From: a virus
Taxonomy: Duplodnaviria; Heunggongvirae; Uroviricota; Caudoviricetes
Virus record (IMG/VR): IMGVR_UViG_2778261316_000001
Location: 1 to 24,643 of that record
Direction: 5' to 3' (one strand)
DNA: 24,643 nt
A program made the position numbers and the translations under genes. The notes under the pieces were generated by a model. The model searched no databases. It saw nothing but the letters and a program-made list of their open reading frames with translations, and was not told where the DNA came from. Below are positions 868-24,067 of the stretch, piece after piece; the stretch's first letter is position 1, and every line of letters starts with the position of its first letter.

Positions 868-868
868 G

Positions 869-2706: not shown

Positions 2707-2711
2707 GACCA

Positions 2712-2951: not shown

Positions 2952-2961
2952 TTAACTAACT

Positions 2962-2987: not shown

Positions 2988-3027
2988 GTTGTTAATGTAA
3001 TAATATAACATAACAGATAGGGGCTTT

Positions 3028-3183
3028 ATGTCTATGACTTCCGCAGACCTGAAGTCCCTCCTGACTCTGGTCTATAAACTCGTGTTCCTCTCTGTGGGTC
3101 TCTACATGGTCCTCTCTGGTCGACTCGGTGTGGATGTGTTCGACACTCTGTCTAAGGCTGTGGGTGGACTTCTAGGTCCTTAG
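3028..3183 (+). CDS. Small predicted membrane protein, 51 aa (MSMTSADLKSLLTLVYKLVFLSVGLYMVLSGRLGVDVFDTLSKAVGGLLGP)
   Basis: GGGG upstream of ATG; one hydrophobic helix; last ORF before the junction region. Confidence 0.3.
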   Translation: MSMTSADLKSLLTLVYKLVFLSVGLYMVLSGRLGVDVFDTLSKAVGGLLGP

Positions 3184-3376
3184 GTTTGGACTCACAGTGG
3201 GACCGATGGTTTCTGACAGAAAAATGTGAATGACCATCTAATACATTAAGCCAGCAGACTTCCCCCCATAGGCCCACCTCAAGTCCAGACCGAGGCCACC
3301 GGGGGTCCTGACCAGCCGTCTAGACATCCAGTCTAATGACACAAGTCTGGCACAAAGAATGACACAAGGTCTTGAC

Positions 3377-6156: not shown

Positions 6157-6158
6157 TG

Positions 6159-6719
6159 CTATTGTGCGGTCGGCTTCAGGAGAGTCTGACCCGGTGTTTT
6201 GTGCTCTGCCAGATACTGATGCTGGAATATACACATGCGAATGGCATTACGATATTGACCATTAATAAAGAACTCGTGCATCAATTCACCTTCAACCGAA
6301 AAGCCAAGCTTGCGGTAAATGTGAATCGCTTTTTCATTCTCTTTATCAACGATCAGATACAGCTTATAGAGATTGAGAACGGTAAAGCCATAGTCCATTG
6401 CTAATTTGGCGGCACGGGTTGCCAGACCTTTCCCCTGATACTCCGGGGAGATAATTATCTGAAATTCTGCGCGGCGATGAACATGGTTAATTTCCACCAG
6501 CTCCACCAGACCGGCTTTTTCGCCGTCACATTCCACCACAAAGCGCCGTTCGCTCTGATCGTGAATATGCTTATCATACAGATCAGAGAGTTCAACAAAG
6601 GCTTCGTAGGGTTCCTCAAACCAGTAACGCATCACACTGGCGTTATTGTCGAGTTGATGTACATAGCGTAAATCTTCACGCTCCAGCGGGCGTAGCTTAA
6701 CACTGTGGGCGCTTGGCAT
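6159..6719 (-). CDS. speG: Spermidine N1-acetyltransferase SpeG, 186 aa
   Basis: Full-length match to recalled SpeG ([26 protein letters not shown]...), GNAT fold. Confidence 0.92.
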
Positions 6720-6753
6720 AACGTGTCCTTACATTCCTTAAATCAATAACAGG

Positions 6754-7095
6754 TTAGGGGGTAATAACGCGGCCAGTTCGACGGTCCAGGCAGCGCAAAG
6801 TATTGGGCTCCCAGTAGGCATTGATGTTGGCGCTTTGCTCACATTTATCGCGGTTATCAAAAGCGGCGTCGGCTTTATCCCACTCTTTTTCAGTGCGTTT
6901 ATTCACTTTCTGGCGCAGATTGCGCGTGTCATTCCATTGCTCTTTTTCCATAGCGGCGTGCTGGCGGCTTTGTGCACTGTCGCCAGACTCAATCACCAGT
7001 TTGTTAGTTTCGGCATGAACAGTTGTGCTCAATGCCAGTGCGCAAGGCAGCAGAATAGCGAGCAGGCCGATTCGTTTGCTGAGAGTGATTTTCAT
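6754..7095 (-). CDS. ynfB: YnfB, UPF0482 secreted protein, 113 aa
   Basis: [28 protein letters not shown] signal peptide; conserved neighbour of speG. Confidence 0.85.
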
Positions 7096-7229
7096 AATTC
7101 ATTCCCTGTATGAATGATTAAAGGTGATTCTACACCATCCACTGCGGACGCAAAACGTACCAGGAGGGTGTTTATATTGATGATATTATGTCGCCCTATA
7201 ACTATACATGATGTCAATAAGAGACAAAG

Positions 7230-7556
7230 ATGATTAAAACAACGTTACTATTTTTTGCTACTGCGCTGTGTGAAATTATTGGATGCTTTCTGCCCTGGTT
7301 GTGGTTAAAACGAAACGCCAGTATCTGGCTGTTGCTTCCGGCGGGGATTTCACTGGCGCTGTTTGTCTGGTTGTTAACGTTGCATCCAGCGGCGAGTGGG
7401 CGTGTTTACGCGGCTTATGGTGGCGTTTATGTCTGCACGGCGTTGATGTGGTTGCGCGTTGTGGATGGCGTGAAACTGACTCTTTATGACTGGACGGGTG
7501 CGTTGATTGCGCTTTGCGGCATGTTGATCATTGTTGCGGGCTGGGGGCGCACGTAG
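7230..7556 (+). CDS. ynfA: YnfA, UPF0060 small inner-membrane protein, 108 aa
   Basis: Four hydrophobic helices; [26 protein letters not shown] matches recalled YnfA. Confidence 0.88.
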
Positions 7557-7761
7557 GAACATAAATCCATTTTATCAATAAGATAAGAGGAAGTGTCAGC
7601 TGACAAAAGGTATTCTATTTCATCTTTTGTCAACCATTCACAGCGCAAATATACGCCTTTTTTTGTGATCACTCCGGCTTTTTTCGATCTTTATACTTGT
7701 ATGGTAGTAGCTCAGTTGCGTAGATTTCATGCATCACGACAAGCGATGCAAGGAATCGAAC

Positions 7762-8976
7762 ATGAAGATCGTAAAGGCTGAAGTTTTTGTTACCTGTCCG
7801 GGGCGTAATTTCGTCACATTAAAAATCACCACTGAGGACGGTATTACGGGCCTTGGGGATGCCACCCTCAATGGACGTGAGCTTTCCGTGGCCTCTTATT
7901 TGCAGGATCACCTTTGTCCGCAGCTTATTGGTCGCGATGCGCACCGTATCGAAGATATCTGGCAGTTTTTCTATAAAGGTGCTTACTGGCGTCGCGGTCC
8001 GGTTACGATGTCGGCCATTTCAGCGGTTGATATGGCGCTGTGGGATATTAAAGCCAAAGCTGCCAACATGCCGCTTTACCAGTTACTCGGCGGCGCGTCT
8101 CGTGAAGGGGTGATGGTTTATTGCCATACCACCGGTCACAGTATTGATGAAGCTCTGGATGATTATGCCCGTCATCAAGAGCTTGGATTCAAAGCCATCC
8201 GCGTGCAGTGCGGAATCCCTGGTATGAAAACCACCTACGGCATGTCGAAAGGTAAAGGTCTGGCTTATGAACCCGCAACCAAAGGACAGTGGCCGGAAGA
8301 GCAGCTGTGGTCGACGGAGAAATACCTCGATTTCATGCCGAAATTGTTTGACGCGGTACGTAACAAGTTTGGTTTTAATGAACATTTGCTGCATGACATG
8401 CACCATCGCTTAACGCCTATTGAAGCGGCGCGCTTTGGTAAAAGCATTGAAGATTATCGCATGTTCTGGATGGAAGACCCGACGCCTGCGGAAAACCAGG
8501 AATGCTTCCGTCTCATTCGCCAACATACCGTCACACCCATCGCAGTGGGTGAAGTCTTCAACAGCATCTGGGACTGCAAACAACTGATTGAAGAGCAACT
8601 CATCGATTATATCCGCACCACGCTGACCCATGCAGGCGGAATTACCGGTATGCGCCGGATTGCCGATTTTGCTTCGCTGTATCAGGTACGTACTGGCTCA
8701 CACGGTCCTTCCGATTTGTCACCAGTCTGCATGGCTGCGGCGCTGCACTTTGATCTGTGGGTCCCCAATTTCGGTGTCCAGGAATACATGGGTTATTCCG
8801 AACAAATGCTCGAAGTCTTCCCGCACAACTGGACTTTCGATAACGGCTATATGCATCCGGGAGACAAACCGGGTCTTGGTATCGAATTCGATGAAAAGCT
8901 GGCGGCGAAATATCCCTATGAACCTGCTTATCTACCAGTCGCACGTCTGGAAGATGGCACGCTGTGGAACTGGTAA
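7762..8976 (+). CDS. rspA: RspA, starvation-sensing protein, mannonate dehydratase-like enolase superfamily, 404 aa
   Basis: [40 protein letters not shown]... typical enolase-superfamily N-terminus; start at internal Met of track ORF; operon with rspB. Confidence 0.9.
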
Positions 8977-8987
8977 GGAGTAAGATA

Positions 8988-10007
8988 ATGAAAAGCATAT
9001 TAATTGAAAAACCGAATCAACTGGCGATTGTCGAACGTGAAATACCCACCCCGTCAGCGGGTGAAGTACGAGTAAAAGTGAAACTTGCCGGAATTTGTGG
9101 TTCAGATAGCCATATTTATCGTGGGCATAATCCTTTTGCGAAATATCCGCGCGTCATTGGTCATGAATTCTTTGGCGTCATTGATGCAGTGGGTGAAGGC
9201 GTGGAAAGCGCCAGAGTCGGTGAACGTGTTGCTGTCGATCCGGTGGTCAGCTGTGGGCATTGCTATCCGTGCTCTATAGGTAAACCGAACGTTTGTACGA
9301 CACTGGCTGTATTAGGTGTGCACGCTGACGGTGGTTTCAGTGAATATGCCGTGGTTCCGGCAAAAAATGCGTGGAAAATTCCTGAAGCAGTGGCCGATCA
9401 ATATGCGGTAATGATCGAACCTTTTACCATTGCGGCTAACGTAACCGGACATGGTCAACCGACTGAAAATGATACCGTTCTGGTTTATGGTGCCGGTCCA
9501 ATCGGCCTGACGATCGTTCAGGTATTAAAAGGCGTCTATAACGTTAAAAATGTGATTGTTGCCGATCGCATTGATGAACGACTGGAAAAAGCGAAAGAGA
9601 GCGGGGCTGACTGGGCGATTAATAACAGCCAGACACCGCTTGGCGAGATTTTCACTGAAAAAGGCATCAAGCCGACATTAATTATCGATGCGGCTTGTCA
9701 TCCTTCTATCCTGAAAGAGGCCGTAACGCTGGCTTCTCCAACGGCACGTATTGTATTGATGGGGTTCTCCAGTGAACCGTCTGAAGTGATTCAGCAAGGA
9801 ATTACCGGAAAAGAACTCTCTATTTTCTCTTCACGCTTAAATGCAAATAAATTCCCGATCGTTATCGACTGGTTAAGTAAAGGGTTAATTAAACCAGAAA
9901 AATTAATTACCCATACGTTTGATTTCCAGCATGTTGCTGATGCCATTAGTTTATTTGAACAGGATCAAAAACATTGCTGCAAAGTCTTACTCACTTTTTC
10001 TGAATAA
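8988..10007 (+). CDS. rspB: RspB, Zn-dependent alcohol dehydrogenase-like starvation-sensing protein, 339 aa
   Basis: MKSILIEKPNQL...; GHEFFG zinc-ADH motif and GAGPIG Rossmann motif; overlaps the rspA stop. Confidence 0.9.
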   Translation: MKSILIEKPNQLAIVEREIPTPSAGEVRVKVKLAGICGSDSHIYRGHNPFAKYPRVIGHEFFGVIDAVGEGVESARVGERVAVDPVVSCGHCYPCSIGKPNVCTTLAVLGVHADGGFSEYAVVPAKNAWKIPEAVADQYAVMIEPFTIAANVTGHGQPTENDTVLVYGAGPIGLTIVQVLKGVYNVKNVIVADRIDERLEKAKESGADWAINNSQTPLGEIFTEKGIKPTLIIDAACHPSILKEAVTLASPTARIVLMGFSSEPSEVIQQGITGKELSIFSSRLNANKFPIVIDWLSKGLIKPEKLITHTFDFQHVADAISLFEQDQKHCCKVLLTFSE

Positions 10008-10064
10008 TACCAATAACGGCGAGTAAGTAGTACGCATCTTACCTCTTTTTTAGAGATAACCATT

Positions 10065-10175
10065 ATGACAATAGAAAAACACGAAAGAAGCACTAAGGAT
10101 TTGGTGAAAGCAGCAGTATCGGGATGGCTGGGCACTGCGCTTGAATTTATGGATTTCAAGAGTCATACGTGTTAA
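10065..10175 (+). pseudogene. ydfJ: 5' fragment of ydfJ (MFS transporter) interrupted by prophage insertion
   Basis: Track-consistent reading gives MTIEKHERSTKDLVKAAVSGWLGTALEFMDF then an early stop; the rest of the transporter is absent and an integrase gene follows. Coordinates +/-1 nt because of a local text/track mismatch. Confidence 0.6.
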
Positions 10176-10194
10176 CTATTTGATAAATATTAAA

Positions 10195-11475
10195 TTAATT
10201 TTTCATTGCTTCGTTATGGGGCATGGTTGGGGCAAACTCGCTTAACTGTGTATTTAACAAAGCTACCTGTGCATTATTGTTTTCAGACATCCATTTTCCG
10301 TATACCTGAAATACCATTTGCGCATCTGCATGGCCCATCTGGTTTGCTATAAATGCCGGGTTAGCACCAGCTGTCAGCGACCAGCAGGCATAAGTATGTC
10401 TCGACTGATATGATTTTCGATGGCGGAGTCCGGCACGTTTTATCGCTGCGTCCCACATCTGCCTTATTGAGTCAACGGTAAAATGGTCACCATAATTTTT
10501 TACTCTCGCTGACACTTCAGGTTGAAAAACAAAGGTGCATTTTTGTTTTTCTGTTCTGCCATACTCTCTGAGGTGAACATCAATGATATGCTCTTTGCTC
10601 AGTCTCGTTAATGTCATCTGACTCCGGAGAGCGTCGATTGCTGGCTTAATAAGATGAATGACCCGATTGGTTCCCGCCTGTGTTTTTGGTACCGTGAAAC
10701 GGTCTTTTGCTAAATTTCTCCTGATCATCATTGTTCCATTTTTCAGATCTATGTCCTCCCATCCAAGTGCACACAGCTCACCAGGGCGAACGCCAGTATA
10801 AACAGAAACACACCATAAATTTTTGGCTTGCTGATTTCTGCACGCATCGATAAGACGGATGAATTCCTCCCGCGAAAGAGGATCCGGAATGGTTCTTGAT
10901 TCCTTTAATGGCGAGATCCCCTTAAACGGGTTATCTGCCAAGTAACCGTTATCAACACCAAACTGGAACACGGCGTTAAGATTTGTCATGTAATTATTTA
11001 CAGTTACAGCCGATCTCCCTGGTTGTGTAACAATATAGTTACTTTTGGGGATCTGGTATCCAGTCAGTAGCTCTTTACGAACCTCCAGTAATTTTTCTTT
11101 ATTAATCGATGAGGCAAGATTTTTTTCACCGATTATGCTCAGGATATTTTTGATGACGGCACGGTATGTGTTGAGTGATGTTTTTGCGACTTCAGTTTCT
11201 TTCAGTGCCAGAAATTTTTCAGCCAGTTCTTTTATGGTTAAATCTTGTCGGGCCTCACCAAATTTTTCCAGATTGCGTGAGGAGGGAAACTGTTTTGCAT
11301 AGTCGAAAACACCAGTTTTTATTGCGTAACAAACAGAGGCGCGTAGTTCACCTGCAACGCGCCTGTTTTTTGCTGTGTCAGGAACCCCCAGATTTTCCCT
11401 GACTCTTACGCCTTTATAAACAAACCAGATACGTAATTTCCCTCCATGGTTTTCCACGCCTGTCGGATATTTCAT
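10195..11475 (-). CDS. int: Phage tyrosine integrase (lambda/Rac IntR-like), about 426 aa
   Basis: N-terminus MKYPTGVENHGGKLRIWFVYKGVRVRE resembles IntR-type integrases; C-terminal catalytic region with HxxR and terminal Tyr context (SYQSRHTYACW...HADAQMVFQVYGKW); adjacent to the ydfJ junction. Confidence 0.85.
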   Translation of the reverse strand: MKYPTGVENHGGKLRIWFVYKGVRVRENLGVPDTAKNRRVAGELRASVCYAIKTGVFDYAKQFPSSRNLEKFGEARQDLTIKELAEKFLALKETEVAKTSLNTYRAVIKNILSIIGEKNLASSINKEKLLEVRKELLTGYQIPKSNYIVTQPGRSAVTVNNYMTNLNAVFQFGVDNGYLADNPFKGISPLKESRTIPDPLSREEFIRLIDACRNQQAKNLWCVSVYTGVRPGELCALGWEDIDLKNGTMMIRRNLAKDRFTVPKTQAGTNRVIHLIKPAIDALRSQMTLTRLSKEHIIDVHLREYGRTEKQKCTFVFQPEVSARVKNYGDHFTVDSIRQMWDAAIKRAGLRHRKSYQSRHTYACWSLTAGANPAFIANQMGHADAQMVFQVYGKWMSENNNAQVALLNTQLSEFAPTMPHNEAMKN

Positions 11476-11509
11476 TTCAACTTCTCTCATTAGTTAGTGT
11501 GGCTTTTAG

Positions 11510-11761
11510 TCAAGTAAGATGACGTCTTGGTCTCGCTGATGCCTGGCGCTCAATCCAGCGATCAATTTCTTCCAGGTTGTAAAAGCATGGGCTGTTATCC
11601 CATGGCATACCGTCATGAGCGACATGCTTATATTCCCTTCCTTCCATAAACGATTTTTCCCGGGCCTTTTTTAACGTACCTTTTTTTATTCCTTTCAGCG
11701 CAATTAACTGCTCTTCGGATACCCATTTGCCGGGAGAGACAATCATGATTACTTCGCTCAT
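11510..11761 (-). CDS. xis: Putative excisionase (YdaQ/Xis-like), 83 aa
   Basis: Small basic protein immediately upstream of int on the same strand; resembles recalled Rac YdaQ. Confidence 0.6.
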   Translation of the reverse strand: MSEVIMIVSPGKWVSEEQLIALKGIKKGTLKKAREKSFMEGREYKHVAHDGMPWDNSPCFYNLEEIDRWIERQASARPRRHLT

Positions 11762-11833
11762 CGATTTCTTTATCTCTTACATTAGACGAGCGCCGGTTGC
11801 AGAATACCAGTCACAACCGGCGACAGTTGAACA

Positions 11834-14305
11834 TTAAGAATCAGCCTGACTCGGGATCAGTTTTTGCCAGATAACTGAAACGTATTTTGCCTGGTAACGG
11901 GCGTCATCAAGTGCATTATGGCGCTCACCTTCGAATGGAATAGCCGTTCTGGCATCGAAGTCTATGGCTTTCCCCAGCTCAACGATTGTGCGTACATCGC
12001 GATCGTTGTAGTAACGCCACGGGCAGGGGATCCCCTGCCGTTCGTATGAACGGCGCAAAATCGTGTTGTCGAAGTTGGCTCCATTTCCCCAAACCTGAAC
12101 AAAAAATTCACCGGAGTTTTCGTCGATAAATTCCCGCAATTGTAACAGTGCATCATCTAACGGGATTTCATCGGTCATAATGGCAGATTGCGCTTCGCGT
12201 GATTGCTTAAGCCACCATTTAATGGTGTCCCGATCAATGACTCCGCCAGCAGTTTCCAGATCGATAGTCTTACTAAATTCCGGTCCCATATCTCCGGTTT
12301 GCGGATCGAAAAATATTGCACCTATTGAGATGATCGGGGCATCAGGATTTTTTCCCATGGTTTCAAGGTCGATCATTAGATGGTCACACGTCCTGCTGGT
12401 GGATGTGATTTCGTGATGACCGTTCACCTTAATTGAGTGATCTGCCGTCTCGCCAGTTTCATTATCGCTATTGTGATGCTGATTGCCGCCAGTGTTCTCC
12501 TTGTGTGGATGTTCAGCGCCTTCCATTTCCTCCAGATCATCTTCCTGAACTTCAACCTGATACTCTTCATCGAATGTTTCCTGGTATGTTGCGTCGCCCA
12601 TCACCGCGCCACAATCAGGGCAGTTGCCGCCGCCGGTCTGACCGCAGGCGGTGCAGACTTTTTCCACTTCCAGTTGCGCCACTGGTTCAGGCTGTTTCGT
12701 TTCTGGCTCGTTTTGTAACGCATTTGTGCTGTTTTGTTCCGCTTTTTGGTAGTTCCGTTCCGATTCATGCTGGTTCTGGTTCACAGAATCGCGGGTCTGG
12801 ATCCCCTTAACCCATTTCGGATCATTCGGGTCACTAATCCCTTCAACAAATTCACCACGTGATGCAGCAAGCAACTTATCGGCGTCAGGCTGGCTGATAT
12901 TGGCTGCCTGCATAATTTTGTTTACTTCGTCAGCGGTAACTTTTATCGGCTCTGGTTGTTCTGAATCTTCAGCGGTATCTACATTTTGCGGTAAGCCCGT
13001 GTATGTGCCATTTTTTCGGGCAAAATATTCTTCTTTTGTGATTTCAGTGGCGCCAGCAGCCAGTGCCTTATCCAGACCAGAAAGTTTGTTTGCGCGACCG
13101 TATTTTTCTCCGTCCTTATCTGCGAAGAGGAAATAGAACGGCCCCTCACGCTCTACAGATGGTTCAGCTTCCGGCGCGGTTTCATTTTTTGGGATATCAG
13201 ATACCTCAGTTTCCACTGCATCAGTTTGTGTTTCTGATGACTGGAGAACATCAACAGTGCCCAGGTCTGTTTCTTCATTCTCAAACACGCCCTTTGTCGT
13301 CAGGTATTCGCAGATATATTTGTTCAGTGCTATGGGATCTTTGTGAATGTCGATCGGACGCTCACGGACAAGGCCAAAAATAGTCTGGCGGTCGTAGCGA
13401 AGGGCATCAGGCTGTTTGCGCATTGATGCCGAGATACGCTTCCAGTCTTCGCGGTCGTTGTCGATAACTTCTTTTTTTGCCCAGCGATGGATGCTGCCGT
13501 CAATGTTTCCGGCATCCACATCACCAGGCCAGAGAGCGTAGGCCAGTTCGTCATCCAGTGTTTTCCATGTCTGCTTGTATTCGCGATGAATGGCAGCAAT
13601 GACCGGGCTGATTTTTCCTGTTGAATTTTCAGTGTACTGTTGATTGGTTCTGGCGCGGGCGAGATCAACAACAGACGTGTATTTTCCGGTTTCCTTGCGT
13701 TCACCTTCGCGACGTTTTTTCCAGATGCGCATCTCTGCCTGAATTTCGGGCCATTTAGCACCAGGAATACATTTATGCTTAACCCACCCAATGGCGTGCA
13801 ACTTAAGCTCCGGATACATGGCGTTAACTTCTGGCATTTTCATCAACGCTTCAACGATATGTCCGTCGAATGTTGCCATGTCTTCCTGCAACAATTCCTG
13901 TGCGCTAATAACCATATCAACGGTGATGTTTTCACATGTGTCGAACTTAACCATGACAGCGTTCTGTACTTCAGGGGCCAGCTTGTCAAAAGTGACGTTC
14001 ATCGGATCGGATTCAGTCTCAACCGGGACAAAAGAAGCAGACTCCTCATCCCAGCGGTTTTCCTGCATATATTCAGCATCCCATGAATCGAGGGCAGGGC
14101 GGGGTATGCCAGGTTTATCCTCGCAGACAATAAATTTATAAGCGCAGTCCTGAGCAGCCGGATAATGTTCCAGGAACTGCCAGTGAAATTTTGCTCGAGC
14201 ACGGCGTTCGTCGCCAGCTTCAATGGCTGTGGCTACAGCCACAGCGCCTTCTTCCCTTGTTGCCAGTTCGTCAGGAATAGCGGCGCAAATAAAGACTTTA
14301 CTCAT
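11834..14305 (-). CDS. RecE-like exonuclease VIII family protein with C-terminal DnaQ-like (DEDDh) 3'-5' exonuclease domain and internal Cys4 zinc ribbon, 823 aa
   Basis: Middle segment DADKLLAASRGEFVEGISDPNDPKWVKGIQTRD matches a recalled RecE segment; C-terminus has MIDLETMG, WGNGANFDN and HNALDDARY (Exo I/II/III motifs); CTACGQTGGGNCPDCG zinc ribbon. Confidence 0.7.
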   Translation of the reverse strand: MSKVFICAAIPDELATREEGAVAVATAIEAGDERRARAKFHWQFLEHYPAAQDCAYKFIVCEDKPGIPRPALDSWDAEYMQENRWDEESASFVPVETESDPMNVTFDKLAPEVQNAVMVKFDTCENITVDMVISAQELLQEDMATFDGHIVEALMKMPEVNAMYPELKLHAIGWVKHKCIPGAKWPEIQAEMRIWKKRREGERKETGKYTSVVDLARARTNQQYTENSTGKISPVIAAIHREYKQTWKTLDDELAYALWPGDVDAGNIDGSIHRWAKKEVIDNDREDWKRISASMRKQPDALRYDRQTIFGLVRERPIDIHKDPIALNKYICEYLTTKGVFENEETDLGTVDVLQSSETQTDAVETEVSDIPKNETAPEAEPSVEREGPFYFLFADKDGEKYGRANKLSGLDKALAAGATEITKEEYFARKNGTYTGLPQNVDTAEDSEQPEPIKVTADEVNKIMQAANISQPDADKLLAASRGEFVEGISDPNDPKWVKGIQTRDSVNQNQHESERNYQKAEQNSTNALQNEPETKQPEPVAQLEVEKVCTACGQTGGGNCPDCGAVMGDATYQETFDEEYQVEVQEDDLEEMEGAEHPHKENTGGNQHHNSDNETGETADHSIKVNGHHEITSTSRTCDHLMIDLETMGKNPDAPIISIGAIFFDPQTGDMGPEFSKTIDLETAGGVIDRDTIKWWLKQSREAQSAIMTDEIPLDDALLQLREFIDENSGEFFVQVWGNGANFDNTILRRSYERQGIPCPWRYYNDRDVRTIVELGKAIDFDARTAIPFEGERHNALDDARYQAKYVSVIWQKLIPSQADS

Positions 14306-14398
14306 TTTGTTTTAACCTCATGACAGATTTAAGGATGAACAAATCCCTGCCATTGCTGGCATATAAGAATGAAACCGGATATTTATTACGGAACTGTT

Positions 14399-14590
14399 TT
14401 AAAGACCTGCCGGGATTTCGATATTATCCTGGTGAATAACTTTATCGACCGGGTAACAGTTACCGGGAATTTTCTGTTCGGTTGCTGCAGTCATACACTC
14501 CTGCATTGTCCTGTGCACACTGACTGCAATATCAACTGGCTCTCCGGAAACAAGAAAAACTGTCAGAACAAGCACAAATGCTGAATTCAT
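14399..14590 (-). CDS. ydfD: YdfD-like small prophage protein, 63 aa
   Basis: MNSAFVLVLTVFLVSGEPVDIAVSV... one hydrophobic helix; start overlaps the dicB stop (ATGA); position after dicB as in Qin. Confidence 0.7.
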   Translation of the reverse strand: MNSAFVLVLTVFLVSGEPVDIAVSVHRTMQECMTAATEQKIPGNCYPVDKVIHQDNIEIPAGL

Positions 14591-14775
14591 TGTGCACATC
14601 CTTTTGGCATCAGACGTAAACGAGCCAGCATTGAAACAATGCATATTTTATTTAATAGCTCCCGTTCTTGTTTTCTCTTGTTAATGGCATCTTCAGTAAA
14701 TACTGGGTTACTGATAGTGACACCAATTTCAAAACAACCTTCAGACGTATTAACGTTTGGTAATAACGTTTTCAT
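14587..14775 (-). CDS. dicB: Cell-division inhibitor DicB, 62 aa
   Basis: MKTLLPNVNTSEGCFEIGVTISNPVFTEDAINKRKQERELLNKICIVSMLARLRLMPKGCAQ matches recalled DicB; lies just downstream of dicF on the same strand. Confidence 0.85.
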   Translation of the reverse strand: MKTLLPNVNTSEGCFEIGVTISNPVFTEDAINKRKQERELLNKICIVSMLARLRLMPKGCAQ

Positions 14776-14949
14776 TATCGCGTCCTCAACAATGAATTTT
14801 GTGATGCAGTGCCTGGTGCCTCCAGGTGACGTTAACCAGTTAACAATTAACGCCGGATACAGAGAATCCACCCATAACACTGTTTTTGGTTTTAACTGTT
14901 CCGCGTGCGCTCAGCCGCATTCACCACATCACAAAATTCACTTTAAAAA

Positions 14950-15002
14950 GGGCGGCAGAGCAGTCACGGAGTAAAACTGATACCGCCAAACGTCACCAGA
15001 AA
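14950..15002 (-). ncRNA. dicF: DicF small RNA (53 nt) with intrinsic terminator
   Basis: Reverse complement reads TTTCTGGTGACGTTTGGCGGTATCAGTTTTACTCCGTGACTGCTCTGCCGCCC followed by TTTTT, identical to the recalled K-12 DicF sequence. Confidence 0.9.
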
Positions 15003-15342
15003 ATTGATAACAGAGGGCGTTGCAGCGGGGTTGTCACTTAAGCGTATGGTCAACCTGACAACCCGGTGTCCTCAACGGGGAAGGAATAACCCCGCCATAC
15101 TTACCGCCGCGCCATTTCGCGGGTTGCCACAACCGGAAGCGCACGGTCGACGAAAATTTAACGACAGGCTATCTATGAACCAGCTACCTCGCCGTGCGCT
15201 TTCGCGTTATGGTCTGACTTTTCAGGGAAATATCCTTTCAGTAAACTGTCAGTGCCGGATGCTCACCCGTGTCCGGCGCACGCACTCCACCTCACCCGTG
15301 GAGAACTCCTTAATTACTAACCTTAGCTTTGTTGATTAGCTA

Positions 15343-15561
15343 CTAACGCGGGTATGTAATCATTCTGGCAATGCTTAATGCCGCTGCTTTTTCCAGATTG
15401 GTGATATCCTGCTCCAGAGCGGACAGATTTTCAGCCTGCTTAGCCCTGGTTTCATTGGCCCATTTCAAATCCTGCGCTGCATTAATTTTCTGGCGCATCC
15501 ACTCATAAAGTTCATCATCGGTATAGTCTGGCGCGATGATGACGGGTTCTCGTTTCTGCAT
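15343..15561 (-). CDS. ydfC: YdfC-like prophage protein, 72 aa
   Basis: Size and position (between ydfB and dicF) match the Qin dicB operon; sequence MQKREPVIIAPDYTDDELYEWMRQ... resembles recalled YdfC. Confidence 0.7.
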   Translation of the reverse strand: MQKREPVIIAPDYTDDELYEWMRQKINAAQDLKWANETRAKQAENLSALEQDITNLEKAAALSIARMITYPR

Positions 15562-15590
15562 ACTGATTCCTCGCGGTGCTGTTTCGCTTA

Positions 15591-15719
15591 TCAGCCGTTA
15601 GATTTTGCCGAACTGGAAAGCGCCTGTTTAAATTCGTTGAAGCTGAGAGCTTCTTCGCCGTCGGCAAGACCTTCCAAGTATTCTTCGTAAGCCTTTTCCA
15701 TGATTGTGTCGAAATCCAT
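15591..15719 (-). CDS. ydfB: YdfB-like prophage protein, 42 aa (MDFDTIMEKAYEEYLEGLADGEEALSFNEFKQALSSSAKSNG)
   Basis: Found by manual translation (below track cutoff); start is 2 nt after the ydfA stop; size matches K-12 YdfB. Confidence 0.6.
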   Translation of the reverse strand: MDFDTIMEKAYEEYLEGLADGEEALSFNEFKQALSSSAKSNG

Positions 15720-15720
15720 A

Positions 15721-15876
15721 TCACTCACCTGGGTTTCTTTCCAGCCAGCGACGGGCACCATTTTCGGTTTTAAACGTTTTGCTTTTGGTATACGTCATCG
15801 CGGTGAACGTACCGTCCTGGTTGGGGAACACGCCACATACCAGAGATTCGCTGTTGCCAAGATCGATAGTATCCAT
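15721..15876 (-). CDS. ydfA: YdfA-like prophage protein (DUF1391), 51 aa
   Basis: MDTIDLGNSESLVCGVFPNQDGTFTAMTYTKSKTFKTENGARRWLERNPGE; first gene downstream of the dicB-operon promoter. Confidence 0.7.
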   Translation of the reverse strand: MDTIDLGNSESLVCGVFPNQDGTFTAMTYTKSKTFKTENGARRWLERNPGE

Positions 15877-15990
15877 GCTGACCTCATTTCCCCTTAACGC
15901 CGGGGTAGCGGAACTGTTTGCTGAGAACACCGTGCGGTGTCTTGATGGAAAATAATTTAGAATAACCTAACATGAGAGGCAAGTGTTTTT

Positions 15991-16044: not shown

Positions 16045-16452
16045 TTATTTTATTGATTTATTTTTACGCGCTTTAAGCATTTCTTCGAAGAGTTTGTTGA
16101 AGTTTTCTACTCTTGCGCGCATTTCAGACAGCAAGGCTTCCTGCTCGGAAGATGGAAGAGCATCGAATAATTCGATCAATTCTTTGTGGTTGGGAGTTAG
16201 CTCTGTTTCCACATGAAGTTCTTGTGCAGGCACTGGTGCCTTGTCTTCGTCACCAAACATTAGCCATGTAGGTGAGCACTTCAGAGCATCCGCTAAAGCA
16301 AACAATCGTTTTCCGACTGGCTGGGTTTCGTCTCTTTCCCATTGTGAAATTGTGACGTGAGCAACTCCAGCGAGGCGCGCGGCTTCTCGTTGTGTTAAGC
16401 GTAATTCTTTTCGTCGCGCCAGAACTCGCTGGCCCAGGGTTCTTGTATCCAT
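16045..16452 (-). CDS. dicA: DicA, HTH-XRE repressor (cI-like), 135 aa
   Basis: N-terminal HTH (LRLTQREAARLAGVAHVTISQWERDE); C-terminal part (FALADALKCSPTWLMFGDEDK...EMRARVENFNKLFEEMLKARK) matches recalled DicA; divergent from dicC. Confidence 0.85.
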   Translation of the reverse strand: MDTRTLGQRVLARRKELRLTQREAARLAGVAHVTISQWERDETQPVGKRLFALADALKCSPTWLMFGDEDKAPVPAQELHVETELTPNHKELIELFDALPSSEQEALLSEMRARVENFNKLFEEMLKARKNKSIK

Positions 16453-16761: not shown

Positions 16762-17266
16762 ACAGGCTCGTGAGGCTCTGGATGCCTGGATATGTCGACC
16801 AGGAATGACACAGGAGCAGGCGACGATATTAATCACTGAAGCATTCTGGGCTTTGAAAGAGCGCCCGAACATCGATGTTCAGCGTGTCACAGATGAAGGT
16901 GGCGCGGTTGATCAGCGAGCGCTTGGTGTTAATCGAGTGAAGATATTCGAACGCTGGAAGGCTATCGACACCAGGGATAAGCGTGAAAAGTTCACGGCGC
17001 TAGTGCCTGCGATTATGGAGGCTATCCGGATTAGTGATTTCAGGTTGTATCGTGAAATTACTGACGGAAAAAGCATCACGTGCATGATCGCCGGGTTAAA
17101 CAAAGAATATGGCGATGTGGTGGAGTCCGGACTGCTTTTTGCTGATCCTGCCGTAGTGGATCGTGAAACTGACGAACTTATAGAAAAAGCAATTGCTTTC
17201 AAGCTTGCGTATCGACAGCAATACCAACAAAAAGCTGGATGGAATTATGAGCCTTCTTTTTGCTGA
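16745..17266 (+). CDS. Hypothetical prophage protein, 173 aa, in the cII/YdaT position
   Basis: ORF overlapping the dicC end and the replication gene start; no motif recognised. Confidence 0.5.
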   Translation: MKITPEQAREALDAWICRPGMTQEQATILITEAFWALKERPNIDVQRVTDEGGAVDQRALGVNRVKIFERWKAIDTRDKREKFTALVPAIMEAIRISDFRLYREITDGKSITCMIAGLNKEYGDVVESGLLFADPAVVDRETDELIEKAIAFKLAYRQQYQQKAGWNYEPSFC

Positions 17267-18190
17267 ACGCCCACTGGTTATAAACACGCAGCTGGCAATG
17301 AAAATTGGCTTAAACGAAGCCATTGTTTTGCAACAACTGCACTACTGGTTGAGAGATACCAACTCCGGCATGGAATGTGATGGTGTTCGCTGGATTTATA
17401 ACACAACGGAACAATGGCTGGAACAGTTCCCATTCTGGTCAGAGTCAACGTTAAAGCGCGCGTTTGCAAGTCTGAAAACGCTGGGGCTTTTGCGTTGTGA
17501 AAAGCTCAATAAATCAAAGCGCGATATGACCAATTTCTACTTTTAGATGGTGGCAAATTGAGCGAATCCATCGGTTCAAAATGCGCCGCTCCATCAGGTC
17601 AAAATGACACGATGGAAGAGGTCAAAATGAAACGCTCCATTGGTTCAAAACGACCCAATGTCATCGGGTCAAAATGGCCTGATGATCTTACAGAGAATAC
17701 AACAGAGATTACTACAGAGAATAAAAACACTTTTCGTCCGGAAGCTTCGCAACCGGACCCGCAGACGACTGAACAGGATTCTTTAACCCGGAACTCCGAC
17801 GCGGTTGTGTTTAGTGCGAAAAAACGCCAGTGGGGTAGCAGGGAGGATTTGGCGTGTGCGCAGTGGATCTGGGGGCGGATCGTGGGTCTCTACGAACAGG
17901 CAGCCAGTGATGATGGCGAGATCATGCGACCAAAAGAGCCTAACTGGACTGCCTGGGCCAATGACGTGCGCACAATGCGGATGCTGGATGGCAGAAGCCA
18001 CAGACAAATTTGCGAAATGTTTGGTCGGGTTCAGCGAGATCCATTCTGGGTAAAAAACATCATGAGCCCGTCAAAGCTCCGCGAAAAATGGGACGAACTG
18101 GTCATCCGCCTGGGACGTTCACCTGTACAGCGTTGTGTTAATCATATTTCTGAACCGGATACAGAAATTCCGCCTGGTTTCAGAGGATAA
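17247..18190 (+). pseudogene. Phage replication initiator (O-like) split into two frames at a T-run, with origin iterons inside
   Basis: N-terminal ~100 aa (MSLLFAERPLVINTQLAMKIGLNEAIVLQQLHYWL...) in frame 0 ends at 17546; continuation in another frame from about 17513/17558 to 18190; frames meet at ctacTTTTagatgg. Confidence 0.55.
17562..17680. repeat. Five iterons (consensus TCCATYGGTTCAAAATG) at 23-24 bp spacing, followed by an A+T-rich stretch: candidate prophage replication origin
   Basis: CAAAATG/CAAAACG cores at 17577, 17600, 17623, 17646, 17670; downstream acagagaatacaacagagattactacagagaataaaaac. Confidence 0.65.
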
Positions 18191-18230: not shown

Positions 18231-18653
18231 GTGGCAAAAGTTTTTACACAAGAAGAGCGGGAAAAAATTAAATGGCAGGTGGTGGAACTCGTGCGCCAGA
18301 GCGGCCGTGAGACGTTACGGCAACTGGAAGCTAAAACAGGTGCGACTAGATATCTGATGAGCGTTCTTGCCAGAGAGCTGGTAGCCAGTGGCGATGTATA
18401 CAACTCCGGCTACGGGTTATTCCCCTCTGAACAGGCGCGTAAGGACTGGCAAAACGCCCGCAAAAAACTCTCGAGGGCAAAGGTGAAGAAACCTGCTGTG
18501 GTTGATCCGGACCTTATCTGGTCATCACCTGACGGAGAAATACGTCGCTACGACAGTCGCCTAAACATAATCTGTCGCGAGTGCCGGAAGAGCGAAGTTA
18601 TGCAGCGCATACTGGCTTTCTATCAGGGTAATTTTCAGGACGTGGCGCAGTGA
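18231..18653 (+). CDS. Hypothetical prophage protein, 140 aa (GTG start)
   Basis: ORF after the replication gene, overlapping the methyltransferase start (GTGA); basic, with a CxxC pair (CRECRK). Confidence 0.4.
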   Translation: MAKVFTQEEREKIKWQVVELVRQSGRETLRQLEAKTGATRYLMSVLARELVASGDVYNSGYGLFPSEQARKDWQNARKKLSRAKVKKPAVVDPDLIWSSPDGEIRRYDSRLNIICRECRKSEVMQRILAFYQGNFQDVAQ

Positions 18654-19139
18654 GTGCACCGGCAACCATTCTTGATATGTGCTGTGGCAGCCGCATGTTC
18701 TGGTTCGATAAGTCTGACAAACGGGCGATATTCAGCGATATCAGAAAAGAAGGATACACATTACGCAATGGGAGACGCTTGATTATCAGCCCTGACATTA
18801 TCGCAGATTTTCGTGCATTATCATTTGCAGACGCATCTTTTTCGATGGTTGTATTAGACCCTCCGCATCTTGAGCGTGTTGGTGATAACGCCTGGATGGG
18901 AAAGAAATATGGACGGCTGAATAAAGATGCCTGGCGTGATGATTTGCGACAGAGATTTAAAGAAGCTTTTCGGGTGTTGAGGCCGCACGGCGTTCTGATT
19001 TTTTAATGGAATGAAACGCAAATACCGGTAAGCCAGATTCTGGCACTGACAGATAGAAAGCCTGTTATCTGTCAACGAACAGGGAAAAAACGATAAAACC
19101 CACTGGATTATTTTTATGAAAGAGGCATCCAGTGAGTAG
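18650..19139 (+). pseudogene. Phage DNA methyltransferase (DPPH motif) disrupted by an in-frame TAA and a frameshift in an A-run
   Basis: ILDMCCGSR (motif I-like) and VVLDPPH (motif IV); in-frame TAA at 19004-19006 inside ...GVLIF*WNETQIPVSQ...; reading shifts frame in AAAAAA at 19085-19090 to continue ...NDKTHWIIFMKEASSE. Confidence 0.6.
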
Positions 19140-19616
19140 ATTCGTAAGGTTACAGATACGTATATCTGAATAATTAAATTCAGTTCTGTAAATAAAACTT
19201 AATCCTTAACCGGATGGATTTCTGCACCCTCAGAACATCAGGAGGCCGCCCGAAAGGGCGGTAGTGAAATGCGAAAGTTCAAAATTATTATTGAAACGGA
19301 AATAGCTGGTGGAGATTTTGAGGATGTATTCGAAGTGGACGATGACGCAACACCTGATGAAATTCATGACGGAGCATAAGAAATTTTCTTTAACTACTGC
19401 AATTACTCATACCACGAAATAAAAGACGATGAGGAAGAACAAAGTGGCTGATTTTTGTTCAGCTAAATATAACATCAGTTTTGAAGAGCGGGATGAACTA
19501 TTAATGGACTATGGTGAATTACGCGGTGGAAGTGCTGCTGATGTCGAATCCTAGCGTGATGACTATGAAGCGGGAAAAACTCCGGTCGAAGCATATTGTG
19601 ATGAGTGGGGCGATGA

Positions 19617-19871
19617 ATGAGCGAGATTAATTATCAGGAAGGGCATGAAACGGCGGGGCAAGCAAAACCAGTGGCATGGCGATATCGCTACGTGAAAAAA
19701 GCGTTACGGACTTTCAGGGGAAGTAGTGGTCTGGTGACTGGAAATATGTACCGAAAAAAGAGGATTGTAACGACAGGCCGAACTATCAAATTCAGGCCTT
19801 ATTCACTGCCTCACCAGTCCCGGTTACATCAGAAGAACTGGTTAAAGCTGTGCACTTTTATGAACAACTAA
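19617..19871 (+). CDS. Hypothetical protein, 84 aa, possibly frameshifted
   Basis: Track ORF; an alternative frame from about 19700 gives a more protein-like continuation (WKYVPKKEDCNDRPNYQIQALFTASPVPVTSEELVKAVHFYEQLKREN) without a start codon. Confidence 0.3.
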   Translation: MSEINYQEGHETAGQAKPVAWRYRYVKKALRTFRGSSGLVTGNMYRKKRIVTTGRTIKFRPYSLPHQSRLHQKNWLKLCTFMNN

Positions 19872-20157
19872 AACGCGAAAATCCACCAACATCCGGCAAC
19901 TAGATTAATGGATTAACTATGTCGGTTAAACGACCAGCCAACTGAAAAAGCGGAAACCTGATTACAGGTTGCCAGATAAGGCAATGAGCTACCTGGCGCG
20001 GAACGGGCTGATAAGTATGGGGAATGTTTTACGATGAACCTTTAGACTAAAGAGTTTGTAACGCTATGTAAGTGATTTTTTCTGGTTTAGATATTTATAT
20101 GTCCGGCCAAATTGAGGTGTGTTTAAATGTAATTGCACATTGATTGTAGGAGGAATA

Positions 20158-20337
20158 ATGAAAAACGCATTGCAGTTTTTGTTTGTTGCGTTCTGGTTGT
20201 TCGCATCATGTATGCCCATCATCTTCACAGCAAGGTATATGGAAAAAGTTGATGTTTTGATATTAATATTTGGATATATAAATGCCCTTTTTTTAGGGGT
20301 GTTCATGGCGGTCATGTGCATTGAATACTGGCGGTAA
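20158..20337 (+). CDS. Small two-helix membrane protein, 59 aa
   Basis: Strong RBS (TAGGAGGAATAATG), A+T-rich upstream region; MKNALQFLFVAFWLFASCMPIIFTARYMEKVDVLILIFGYINALFLGVFMAVMCIEYWR. Confidence 0.4.
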   Translation: MKNALQFLFVAFWLFASCMPIIFTARYMEKVDVLILIFGYINALFLGVFMAVMCIEYWR

Positions 20338-20643
20338 ATACAGCGAACTCCATTGGTTTAGTTGGATATTTACTGTGCTGGACAAAAACGGTTTGCGGGG
20401 AAATCTTAGTTAAGTAGAATGACTGCGGGTGCTTGAGGCTATCTGCCTCGGGCATGGACACCAACGGCAGATAGAGAAAAGCCCCAGTTAACATTACGCG
20501 TCCTGCAAGACGCTTAACATTAATCTGAGGCCAATTTCATGCTAGACACATGTAGGTTAGCCTCTTACGTGCCGAAAGGCACGGAGAAGCAGGCTATTGT
20601 TAACACCAAGCTGTAATGTCCCCTTTGAACCATTCTAAAATGT

Positions 20644-20670
20644 CCCCAGACAATTCTCTGGGGGATTTTT
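20644..20670 (+). terminator. Intrinsic terminator-like hairpin (CCCCAG...CTGGGG + TTTTT) immediately upstream of the transposase start
   Basis: 6-bp GC-rich stem, 8-nt loop, then GATTTTT; ends 1 nt before the ATG at 20672. Confidence 0.4.
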
Positions 20671-20671
20671 C

Positions 20672-22012
20672 ATGATCAAAGAGACTGTTACGATGAGTCA
20701 TAAGGAACTCCACCGACTTCAGATTATTCAGGAGTCAATTAATCGACATATTACTCAGGAACAAGCTGCGGCACGCATTGGCATTTCTATTCGGCAGGTT
20801 AAACGTCTGGTGCAACGGTATAGAAATGAAGGGCCTTCTGGTCTGGTTTCCCACCGACGTGGAAAGCGTCCTAATAATTCCTTTTCTACTGAATTCAGAG
20901 CAACAGTAATTTCACTCCTCAAAGGCCGTTACGCTGATTTTGGACCTACGTTTGCGTGCGAAAAATTGCGCGAGATACACGGTTTATCTTTATCCGTTGA
21001 AACTCTCAGAAAGTGGATGATAGAAGAGGGGTTATGGCGTGAACGCCGTCGTAAAATTGCCCGTATATATCAACGCCGCATGCGACGACCATCTTACGGT
21101 GAACTGATCCAGATTGATGGCTCACCTCATGACTGGTTTGAAAATCGAGGCCCCAGATGTACACTGATCGTTTTCATTGATGATGCCACCAGTGCGTTGA
21201 TGGCGTTGCGTTTTGTGCCTGCTGAAACAACCCGGGCTTACATGGAAACCCTCCGGGGTTACCTTAATGATCATGGCGTACCGCTCGCTCTCTACTCTGA
21301 TAGACACAGTATATTCAGGGTAAATAACCCAGAGCGGGAAGGTGAGCTGACCCAGTTCACTCGTGCGATAAAGACACTGGGCATCGAGCCAATCCATGCC
21401 AACAGCCCGCAGGCAAAAGGGCGGGTAGAGCGCGCCAATCAGACACTACAGGACAGGCTGGTCAAAGAAATGCGGCTTCAGAATATCAGTGATATTGAAA
21501 CAGCAAATGCATGGTTGCCGACCTTTATTGAAGCCTATAACAACCGGTTCGCTACGTCGCCTCGTACTACTGATAATGCTCATCTTGATGTGCACCATTC
21601 TGAAGAGGAACTGGGTTATATCTTCAGCCTACAGGCGAAGCGCGTTCTGTCTAAAAATCTCACTTTCCAGTACAAAAGCAGTGCGTTTCAGGTACGCAGT
21701 GAGAGCCGGGGATATCGACTTAGGCATTCGGTTGTTACTGTATGCGAGAACTTTGACGGTGAAATTAACGTTCTGTATGACGGGAAAGCGCTGGGCTGGG
21801 AAAAGTATGTTGATGGCCCGGAGCCTATACCACTGGATGATGAAAAGAGTGTCCATGAACGAGTGGATAATGCCCGTATTGATTTACGCTCAAAATACTA
21901 TGTTAAACCTAAAGCTGACCATCCCTGGCTTACGCGCCGAACGCAAAGTCATCAGCAAGTTAAGCCCCCGAAGTTACCTAAAAAGAAGCCTGATCCCGAT
22001 AAAAAAGATTGA
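20672..22012 (+). CDS. DDE transposase (HTH N-terminus plus rve integrase-core domain), 446 aa; IS481/ISNCY-like
   Basis: N-terminal HTH (ITQEQAAARIGISIRQVKRLVQRY), catalytic core with D...D...E pattern (IQIDGSPHDWF..., LYSDRHSIF, ...RVERANQTLQ), basic C-tail. Family assignment from memory. Confidence 0.8.
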   Translation: MIKETVTMSHKELHRLQIIQESINRHITQEQAAARIGISIRQVKRLVQRYRNEGPSGLVSHRRGKRPNNSFSTEFRATVISLLKGRYADFGPTFACEKLREIHGLSLSVETLRKWMIEEGLWRERRRKIARIYQRRMRRPSYGELIQIDGSPHDWFENRGPRCTLIVFIDDATSALMALRFVPAETTRAYMETLRGYLNDHGVPLALYSDRHSIFRVNNPEREGELTQFTRAIKTLGIEPIHANSPQAKGRVERANQTLQDRLVKEMRLQNISDIETANAWLPTFIEAYNNRFATSPRTTDNAHLDVHHSEEELGYIFSLQAKRVLSKNLTFQYKSSAFQVRSESRGYRLRHSVVTVCENFDGEINVLYDGKALGWEKYVDGPEPIPLDDEKSVHERVDNARIDLRSKYYVKPKADHPWLTRRTQSHQQVKPPKLPKKKPDPDKKD

Positions 22013-23911: not shown

Positions 23912-24067
23912 ATGAAGCAGCAAAAGGCGATGTTAATCGCCCTGATCGTCATCTGTTTAACCGTCATAGTGACGGCACTGGTAACGAGGAAAGACCTCTG
24001 CGAGGTACGAATCCGAACCGGCCAGACGGAGGTCGCTGTCTTCACAGCTTACGAACCTGAGGAGTAA
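23912..24067 (+). CDS. hokD: HokD (RelF) Hok-family membrane toxin, 51 aa
   Basis: MKQQKAMLIALIVICLTVIVTALVTRKDLCEVRIRTGQTEVAVFTAYEPEE, found by manual translation; typical Hok architecture. Confidence 0.85.
   Translation: MKQQKAMLIALIVICLTVIVTALVTRKDLCEVRIRTGQTEVAVFTAYEPEE

Follow-up and report, generated by a model that had tools for sequence, protein, structure and literature searches.

Qin (Kim), the cryptic lambdoid prophage of Escherichia coli K-12, is the closest described counterpart of the locus considered here. It occupies the rspB-side locus and has in common with our sequence a dicA/dicC-type immunity region and the ydfA-ydfB-ydfC-DicF-dicB-ydfD operon, together with ydfW, flxA, ydfV, relBE, hokD, rem, ydfU, Q, the lysis genes and cspI. 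It differs in that the segment from ydaT' (ydfX) to ydfW has been deleted, and K-12 is hence without the three genes, A, B and C, that are the subject of this study; intQ and ydfE are pseudogenes there, and int and exo have been lost. Another Qin-locus prophage, PhiR42_1 of ECOR13 (PV340562), has been deposited as a 48.7-kb phage genome. A literature search found no paper on PhiR42_1, and its record lists gene fragments as genes. A positional analogy can also be drawn with the nin region of phage lambda, where small dispensable genes are crowded closely together, some of them overlapping, between the replication genes and Q. Uneven decay of defective prophages and the retention of host-useful genes within them are already established (Wang et al., 2010, PMC3105296; Bobay et al., 2014, to the extent that it is cited in PMC6832061), and the locus touches no open question in this respect.

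We analyzed a stretch of 24,643 nucleotides (the window), which constitutes the IMG/VR record IMGVR_UViG_2778261316_000001. An earlier note on this DNA had described positions 19140-19915 as a nin-like cluster of small open reading frames (ORFs) that continue in frame past their stop codons, and had taken the accumulation of lesions there and upstream as a sign that one prophage arm is selectively retained. Our analysis indicates that 19269-20037 very probably represents three dead accessory genes of lambdoid phage origin that were formerly coupled in translation, located between the replication module and hok/Q, and it gives little reason to invoke a protected arm.

Prophage setting

The whole window consists of matches to E. 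coli chromosomes, and one record, NZ_CM194533.1, matches it at 100%. Record annotation and an Rfam scan place the studied region within the Qin cryptic lambdoid prophage, adjoining rspB, with rspB-side integration, a dicC/dicA-type immunity region and the ydfABC-DicF-dicB-ydfD operon. The annotated order begins with int, xis, exo, ydfD, dicB, DicF, ydfC, ydfB and ydfA, continues with a cI-like repressor, dicC, ydaT, an O-like initiator, DUF977, a methyltransferase pseudogene and the A/B/C region, and ends with an ISNCY/ISEsa1-like transposase fragment, ydfW, flxA, ydfV, relBE, hokD and rem. The source-like record and K-12 Qin have their genes in collinear order. The prophage is defective in that its morphogenesis genes have been lost, and nohA, a terminase/stf fusion, tfaQ and pinQ are the late-region leftovers in the 100%-matching record. 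Compared with K-12, the window version retains int, xis, exo, ydaT, the O-like gene, DUF977, the dead methyltransferase gene and the dead A/B/C genes, as well as a sok remnant and the IS fragment; its repressor allele is different. The features discussed below are as follows.

14950-15001, minus strand: DicF (Rfam, 76.7 bits)
17247-18190, plus strand: O-like replication initiator gene, split into 17247-17546 and 17558-18190
17553-17684: five iterons of ~23 nt, just downstream of a 22-bp deletion
18650-19139, plus strand: SAM-dependent (DNA) methyltransferase pseudogene (PGAP note "frameshifted; internal stop")
19166-19268, plus strand: conserved leader and mosaic joint 5' of gene A; phage homology begins at ~19166
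19269-19451, plus strand: gene A pseudogene, DUF7167 (Pfam PF23768)/phrog_1997; 60 aa (183 nt) when intact
19444-19620, plus strand: gene B pseudogene, phrog_519; 58 aa (177 nt) when intact; overlaps A by 8 nt
19617-20037, plus strand: gene C pseudogene, phrog_660; overlaps B by ATGA; TGA at 20035-37
20427-20598, plus strand: sok/hok-leader remnant (Rfam RF01794, 104 bits)
20672-22012, plus strand: ISNCY/ISEsa1-like transposase fragment (PGAP "incomplete; missing C-terminus")

In the relatives and in the source record, the slot is preceded by the O-like gene and DUF977 and followed by hok, rem, ydfU (DUF968), rusA and Q, and with its genes between the O-like replication gene/DUF977 and hok-rem-ydfU-Q the term nin-like is fair as a positional description. 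Unlike the genes of the lambda nin region, A, B and C match DUF7167/phrog_1997, phrog_519 and phrog_660 only; Pfam and PHROG scans gave no match to any nin gene family. These three families are uncharacterized and recur among phages, and a literature search found no paper that mentions DUF7167. An Rfam scan of the whole window at gathering thresholds returned DicF and sok only, with zero hits in 19140-19915, and a non-coding RNA explanation of that interval was rejected.

Intact relatives of the A-B-C module

Intact relatives of the module have 88-92% nucleotide identity to the window and contain three translationally coupled genes in this slot. They include vB_EcoS-640R1, vB_EcoS-689R5, vB_Apl-pPE4, ArgO145 and the JJ1886 prophage at tRNA-Ser/mtfA, and further STN0717-11, 2014C-3097 and JE86-ST02. 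Each gene is a single long ORF, of 183 nt for A, 177 nt for B and 315-516 nt for C, the last with mosaic C-termini. Gene B begins 8 nt before the end of A (ATGGCTGA) and C begins at an ATGA overlap with B. Gene order, overlapping start/stop junctions and the upstream leader are as in the window in vB_EcoS-689R5, the JJ1886 prophage and Stx phage ArgO145, the last of which has the module in a different genomic neighborhood. Modules of this type differ from the window in that A and B are open, as is C in several of them (360-516 nt). Comparison with these relatives confirmed each of the lesions in A, B and C described below, every one being the derived state against 9-10 intact sequences, and in none of the relatives examined do the short ORFs of the window appear as genuine separate genes.

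Lesions in genes A, B and C

Gene A is interrupted by the nonsense substitution K37* (AAA to TAA at 19377-19379), which leaves an ORF of 36 codons (19269-19379). The earlier note held that this ORF continues in frame past its stop, and it does, as homologous sequence to 19451. The frame past the TAA reads EIFFNYCNYSYHEIKDDEEEQSG, includes the peptide EIFFNYCNYSYHEIK and ends at TGA 19449-51; its tail is identical at 21 of 23 residues to the intact 60-aa homologues and uses the same stop codon as theirs. Position 19377 is A in 9/9 intact relatives. Conceptual repair raises the PHROG score from 57.8 to 100.1 bits and the score against Pfam DUF7167, a model of ~60 positions with a gathering cut-off of 24.4 bits, from 24.1 to 45.3 bits with positions 1-60 covered (an intact relative scores 55.1 bits). 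The 36-aa ORF as found covers model positions 1-33 only and lies below the cut-off. Judged from these scores, the locus is a truncated, pseudogenized descendant of DUF7167 and not an intact member of the family. Several assemblies bear the PGAP label "DUF7167 family protein; internal stop", and in some the 36-aa ORF is listed as a normal "DUF7167 family protein".

Gene B has lost its native start (ATG to GTG at 19444) and has acquired the nonsense codon W37* (TGG to TAG at 19552-54). The 41-codon ORF that the earlier note placed at 19430 in fact spans 19429-19554, its first five codons being an upstream in-frame extension from ATG 19429; the continuation past the TAG that the note had claimed is real, while its start has to be moved to 19429 and the native start lies at 19444. 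Beyond the TAG the frame reads RDDYEAGKTPVEAYCDEWGDE, includes the peptide DDYEAGKTPVEAYCDEWGDE and ends at TGA 19618-20. This tail is identical to the intact 58-aa homologues at 21/21 residues, with one synonymous change on the Qin branch, and its conservation could reflect either recent exchange between prophages or constraint. The 41-aa ORF is without any match to phrog_519; after repair the match reaches 52.3 bits (E = 1.6e-13) over residues 1-58, with 83.2 bits for an intact relative. In every record inspected, annotation of gene B as a pseudogene is absent.

Codon 37 of gene B is TGG in all intact relatives but one, the exception being 606R7, which has an independent TAG at this codon on a different sequence background. 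An intact, near-identical database protein of B (P0001) has six N-terminal "Qin-type" residues in common with the window. These differences in B are therefore allelic, and the Qin-specific set is M1V, A34V, A36S and W37*. The amber codon lies inside a former Dcm site (CCTGG to CCTAG, 19550-54), to which A36S (GCA to TCC) had given rise before the amber appeared. Dcm sites are classic mutation hotspots via deamination of 5-methylcytosine, and the signature suggests that the amber codon would have arisen by such a deamination on the complementary strand.

For gene C the lesions were read from an alignment to L013, L012 and L010. One G has been lost at 19701, directly after an A6 run (19695-19700), and the resulting -1 frameshift, which the earlier note had suspected in the ORF at 19617, is confined to the window's haplotype. 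The set is completed by two nonsense codons, TAG 19724-26 and TAG 19901-03, and by a -4 frameshift, four nucleotides having been deleted at 19934/35. Measured against the 171-aa form, C also lacks 90 nt in frame at 19879/80, a deletion shared with other prophages. The 84-aa ORF matches phrog_660 through residues 2-40 only (28.7 bits) and is out of frame past codon 28; repaired across two frameshifts and two stops, gene C scores 161.5 bits. PGAP calls a pseudogene at window positions 19617-20037 ("frameshifted; internal stop"), and the remnant runs ~120 nt beyond 19915, where the earlier note had ended the region, to 20037.

Because repair lifts the family scores, the sequence beyond the stops is a real coding remnant and no chance open frame. 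The proposal that the cluster consists of decayed genes is well founded on these scores and on the intact relatives. Minus-strand ORFs at 19230-19367, 19288-19377, 19475-19594 and elsewhere lie antisense to the conserved coding frames and gained no support of their own.

Neighboring lesions and elements

Lesions in the initiator and methyltransferase genes had also been claimed, and both exist. The initiator has a 22-bp deletion at 17539/17540; L001 and L002 have the extra CACGATCAACTATGGGAGCGAG and an intact gene of 966 nt. This deletion is private to the strain, as the 966-nt gene is intact in MB10, PhiR42_1, cq9, UMNK88 and 14EC047 (it was also noted as intact under the labels L001, L002, L011, L015 and L016). 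The methyltransferase gene is disrupted twice, by a nonsense codon at 19004-19006 (AAA to TAA) and by a frameshift that lies in or beside the A-run near 19085-19098. Its conceptual repair, of 162 aa, is collinear with intact phage methyltransferases and, in Stx2c phages, finds matches with 100% coverage and 85% identity. The five or more disruptions counted in the earlier note between 17.2 and 19.9 kb are real but an underestimate, there being at least 10 within 17.5-20.04 kb in addition to the loss of the hok ORF (20598).

The leader in front of gene A contains AGGAGG (19240-45), a 6-bp GC hairpin with a GAAA loop (19246-61), 7 further nucleotides and the ATG at 19269. Folding of 19225-19290 gave a minimum free energy (MFE) of -17.7 kcal/mol (z = -2.25), with the hairpin in both the MFE and the centroid structures. 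In O157 the same ~100-nt leader comes after another methyltransferase pseudogene, so we regard it as a module joint and reject it as an independent element. A promoter consensus scan found one weak site (19264-19291), fewer than the shuffled expectation. Terminator-like hairpins were found in 18900-20700, none of them in the leader (19166-19268), and the hairpin before gene A is without a T-tract; a promoter or terminator explanation of the leader was rejected on the consensus scan.

On the right, homology to L010 (a JJ1886-type prophage) stops at window position 20597, which is L010 position 10376, and hokD of L010 starts at 10375. As the homology stops at the hokD start of the relative, the hok ORF has been removed at the IS junction and the sok/leader part alone is left. 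The decayed block has its right edge here. The transposase fragment forms one ORF of 446 aa that runs in frame into ydfW (21863-22012).

Spread and continuing erosion

The Qin-type allele is found in ~500 complete E. coli genomes at ≥99% identity, and ATCC 8739 is one strain that has it. Another ~1,350 complete genomes fall in a class at ~92%, of which the cases sampled proved to be different prophages, more complete and with open A and B genes. Each of the two Qin haplotypes was turned into a 251-nt query in which both stops had been repaired. The closest records matched at 99.2%, differing at exactly the two engineered mismatches, and numbered 34 for the one haplotype and 376 for the second. 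No genome was closer to either repaired query, and there were zero Qin-type copies with either stop repaired in this two-haplotype search. Both stops are thus fixed among these Qin-type copies and present in at least 410 complete E. coli genomes (34 + 376, with the haplotypes matched exactly over 251 nt). Over 851 nt, 14 records are 100% identical to the window. PGAP independently flags A, C and the methyltransferase gene as pseudogenes in several assemblies.

Erosion has gone further in some lineages. There are Qin-type variants of B with frameshifts, deletions or fusions (P0028, P0031, P0038 and P0039), recombinants in which the "VES*" lesion stands on another N-terminal background (P0033, P0036) and minority variants with CAG for TAG at codon 37, which re-open a 64-aa ORF (P0003, P0004). 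14EC047 has an IS66 insertion and K-12 has lost the whole block by deletion. On the Qin branch, changes in A and B together comprise 13 nonsynonymous and 7 synonymous (dN/dS ~0.41, not significantly different from neutrality), as against a dN/dS of ~0.18 among intact copies, which does differ significantly from neutrality; the contrast between the two is not significant (Fisher p = 0.18). The polarized Qin-branch counts point toward relaxed constraint and are partly confounded, since six of the B changes are allelic (P0001).

PhiR42_1 gives the lesions a relative age. It is 99.1% identical to the window over the region and shares the A and B stops, the first TAG in C, the methyltransferase stop and the IS scar. 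Unlike the window it has kept the G at 19701, and with it the frame of C at that point, and its O-like gene is intact and its late region complete: it retains int-xis-exo, the immunity/dicB region, replication, Q and lysis genes and a complete lambda-type head/tail block. A prophage that is complete yet bears the lesions means that the lesions are older than the late-gene deletion in the window's strain and in K-12.

Discussion

The reading we favor, three dead accessory genes that were once translationally coupled, would require nothing beyond ordinary spontaneous mutation: A and B each suffered one single-base nonsense substitution, B in addition a change to a weaker start codon, and C acquired two nonsense codons and two small deletions that shift the frame. 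All of these nonsense codons, and the -4 deletion with them, probably arose once, in an ancestor of the Qin-locus lineage in which all modules were still present, and have since passed to ~500 sequenced E. coli chromosomes with further, presumably neutral, erosion. As far as sequence comparison can tell, no function has been kept and the present short ORFs are probably reading-frame leftovers.

The proposal that the lesion cluster reflects selective retention of one arm, with int-xis-exo and the dicB operon kept while the replication/nin-like arm decays, appears unlikely to us. It has points in its favor. PGAP reports no broken gene in this strain from int through ydaT, against at least 10 lesions at 17.5-20.04 kb and the loss of the hok ORF; int has an in-situ dN/dS of ~0.1; both dicB and dicF have demonstrated effects at the host level (PMC6832061); and purifying selection has been reported on the genes that remain in vertically inherited defective prophages (Bobay et al., 2014, cited through PMC6832061). 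The right arm is annotated as intact in this strain as well, however (flxA, ydfV, relBE, hokD, rem, ydfU, Q, essD, rrrQ, rzpQ and cspI), a small ORF at 20159-20337 remains intact inside the supposedly decayed block, and the O-gene lesion, being private to the strain, stands outside the old cluster. The intactness of the int-xis-exo and dicB arm holds for this strain but not across the lineage: UMNK88 has a frameshift in exo and 14EC047 one in dicA, and in K-12 both intQ and ydfE have become pseudogenes. PhiR42_1 has the same lesions while keeping all its modules, including the head and tail genes. Since the lesions arose in an otherwise complete element, they are not the counterpart of a protected arm, and the claim of selective retention is left unsupported. 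The repressor allele has been swapped and alleles of the A-C slot recombine between prophages, so the intactness of a segment can also reflect recent replacement. We also carried out the comparison of dN/dS along the prophage that the earlier note had proposed, in situ and per gene, for the window against UMNK88, 14EC047, cq9, MB10 and PhiR42_1. With 15 synonymous and 18 nonsynonymous changes in the left arm and 2 and 5 in the pseudogene block, substitutions are too few to compare the arms or to show differential constraint; exo (~0.6 on 16 changes) and the pseudogene block (~0.65 on 7) offer no demonstrable contrast.

Three other explanations deserve to be weighed against the loss of three genes. 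Leaky or regulatory in-frame stops have been proposed in general by Belinky et al. (PMC7918605), and here low-level readthrough might yield full-length DUF7167 and phrog_519 proteins from down-tuned A and B genes. The persistence of the stops in ~500 genomes and the perfectly conserved tail of B would fit, the TAG to CAG variants (P0003, P0004) resemble the "stop intermediate" double substitutions of that study, and the over-representation of the "mobilome" category among its cases (PMC7918605) would agree as well. Against this, all diverged relatives, 606R7 apart, have sense codons at the stop positions of A and B, so that the stops are not conserved features (codon 37 of A is AAA in all intact relatives). 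Gene B has lost its ATG as well, readthrough is powerless against the frameshifts in the neighboring C and methyltransferase genes, and Qin-type alleles gather frameshifts, deletions, an IS insertion and loss of the whole block. The stop in gene A is moreover TAA, the least leaky stop codon in E. coli. We consider such readthrough very improbable, and give equally little credence to a version in which the nonsense codons are tolerated and readthrough or reversion to CAG maintains a trickle of DUF7167 and phrog_519 protein in ~500 lineages.

The view that each of the ORFs of 36, 41 and 84 codons is a small gene in its own right seems less probable still. PGAP and phage annotators have called some of them as coding sequences, and the 36-aa ORF does reach 57.8 bits against phrog_1997; but intact phages show one long ORF in place of the fragments, and the ORFs themselves match DUF7167 at positions 1-33 only and below the cut-off (36 aa), match no family (41 aa) or run out of frame past codon 28 (84 aa). 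The least plausible explanation, to the point of being negligible, attributes the stops and the frameshift to errors of sequencing or assembly, such as homopolymer errors. The -1 frameshift in C does adjoin an A6 run, where L003 and L010 have A8. The stops in A and B, though, are base substitutions without change of length, and the identical sequence recurs in numerous complete genomes obtained independently, by different laboratories and from different hosts; with no stop-repaired Qin-type copy and at least 410 genomes containing both stops, sequencing error is excluded.

With the loss of three coupled accessory genes as the preferred reading, these are ordinary pseudogenes, already annotated, in a well-known cryptic prophage. 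They provide a well-dated example of dispensable accessory genes lost early in a lambdoid prophage, before the structural genes. They also matter for annotation: among the normal genes of some RefSeq records are two truncated remnants, a "DUF7167 family protein" of 36 aa and a "class I SAM-dependent methyltransferase" of 118 aa. Loss of these genes is not limited to Qin. Gene C is itself frameshifted in the JJ1886 prophage and in 640R1, and "Rac 442/2" has lost the start of gene A; together with the amber of 606R7, these scattered lesions indicate that sporadic loss of A, B and C is common. We regard it as very improbable that the repeated knock-out of gene B at codon 37, in the Qin lineage and in 606R7, reflects selection against a product that is toxic to the host.

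Repeated loss of the accessory genes A, B and C

Genes A, B and C (DUF7167/phrog_1997, phrog_519 and phrog_660) are accessory genes whose loss is a repeated event among lambdoid phages and prophages. The start of gene A is preceded by the following element:

19240-19271, gene A leader: AGGAGG, a GC hairpin (16 nt, GAAA loop), 7 nt and the gene A ATG

The distance from the Shine-Dalgarno to the start codon is 23 nt and is shortened only if the hairpin forms. This layout, which is kept in relatives with little covariation, is reminiscent of structured-spacer ribosome-binding sites. The amber codon of gene B (19549-19554) lies inside a Dcm site that was made by prior substitutions, the codons having passed from GCA TGG through TCC TGG to TCC TAG, a change that bears the signature of 5-methylcytosine deamination.

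Independent lesions are seen in other DNAs. Codon 37 of gene B is likewise changed from TGG to TAG in phage vB_EcoM-606R7 (2777-2963), on a different sequence background; the start codon of gene A is destroyed (ATG to ATA) in the 'Rac' 442/2 prophage (2553-2735); and gene C is frameshifted by expansion of A6 to A8 in a JJ1886-type prophage (L010) and in a further comparison DNA, L003. Over the A-B-C module, PP818812.1, deposited as 'Actinobacillus phage vB_Apl-pPE4', has ~89.5% nucleotide identity to E. coli lambdoid prophage DNA, and its Actinobacillus host label looks odd.

Downstream of these genes lies a likely ORF that is missing from the annotation:

20159-20337, plus strand, 59-aa ORF whose product has two hydrophobic segments (MKNALQFLFVAFWLF...); Shine-Dalgarno AGGAGG

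In JJ1886-type prophages this ORF is intact, with 98.6–99.7% identity to the window, whereas genes A–C reach only ~92%. A minus-strand ORF overlapping the same interval, annotated in some phage records, is disrupted in one relative.

The IS junction and the structure of Qin

20427-20598, sok/hok-leader remnant (Rfam RF01794, 104 bits)
20672-22012, plus strand, 446-aa ORF, an ISNCY/ISEsa1-like transposase fragment continuing in frame into ydfW
23912-24067, second hokD, intact

The right end of the sok/hok-leader remnant is the exact position of the hokD start codon in relatives, and the hok toxin ORF is lost where the remnant meets the IS fragment. Since a sok remnant without its toxin ORF at this junction is accompanied by a second, intact hokD, Qin looks like two lambdoid early-region segments fused at the IS scar. 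The final 49 codons of the 446-aa ORF make up what is annotated as the 49-aa 'protein YdfW', a relation suggesting that ydfW is a leftover reading frame.

Immunity region, initiator gene and left end

16045-16452, minus strand, cI-like repressor, another allele than K-12/UMNK88 dicA
17553-17684, five iterons of ~23 nt each, core TCAAAATG, within the O-like initiator gene

The immunity region has been swapped inside a prophage otherwise inherited vertically: the repressor gave no blastn match to K-12/UMNK88 dicA, and its flanking genes have 94–100% identity to other Qin haplotypes. The intragenic iteron array resembles the lambda ori. Directly adjoining it on the upstream side, a 22-bp deletion (17539/17540), private to the window's strain, breaks the O-like gene in two, whereas the gene is whole (966 nt) in other Qin-locus prophages.

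At the left end (1-4834; 5824-15982 in comparison DNA L009), a ynfE-like DMSO/selenate reductase A-subunit gene is interrupted by an inserted island encoding a tyrosine recombinase, KilA-N and DUF6971. The version of this island in the 100%-matching E. coli chromosome (NZ_CM194533.1) contains an ISSen4 copy that is absent from the window.
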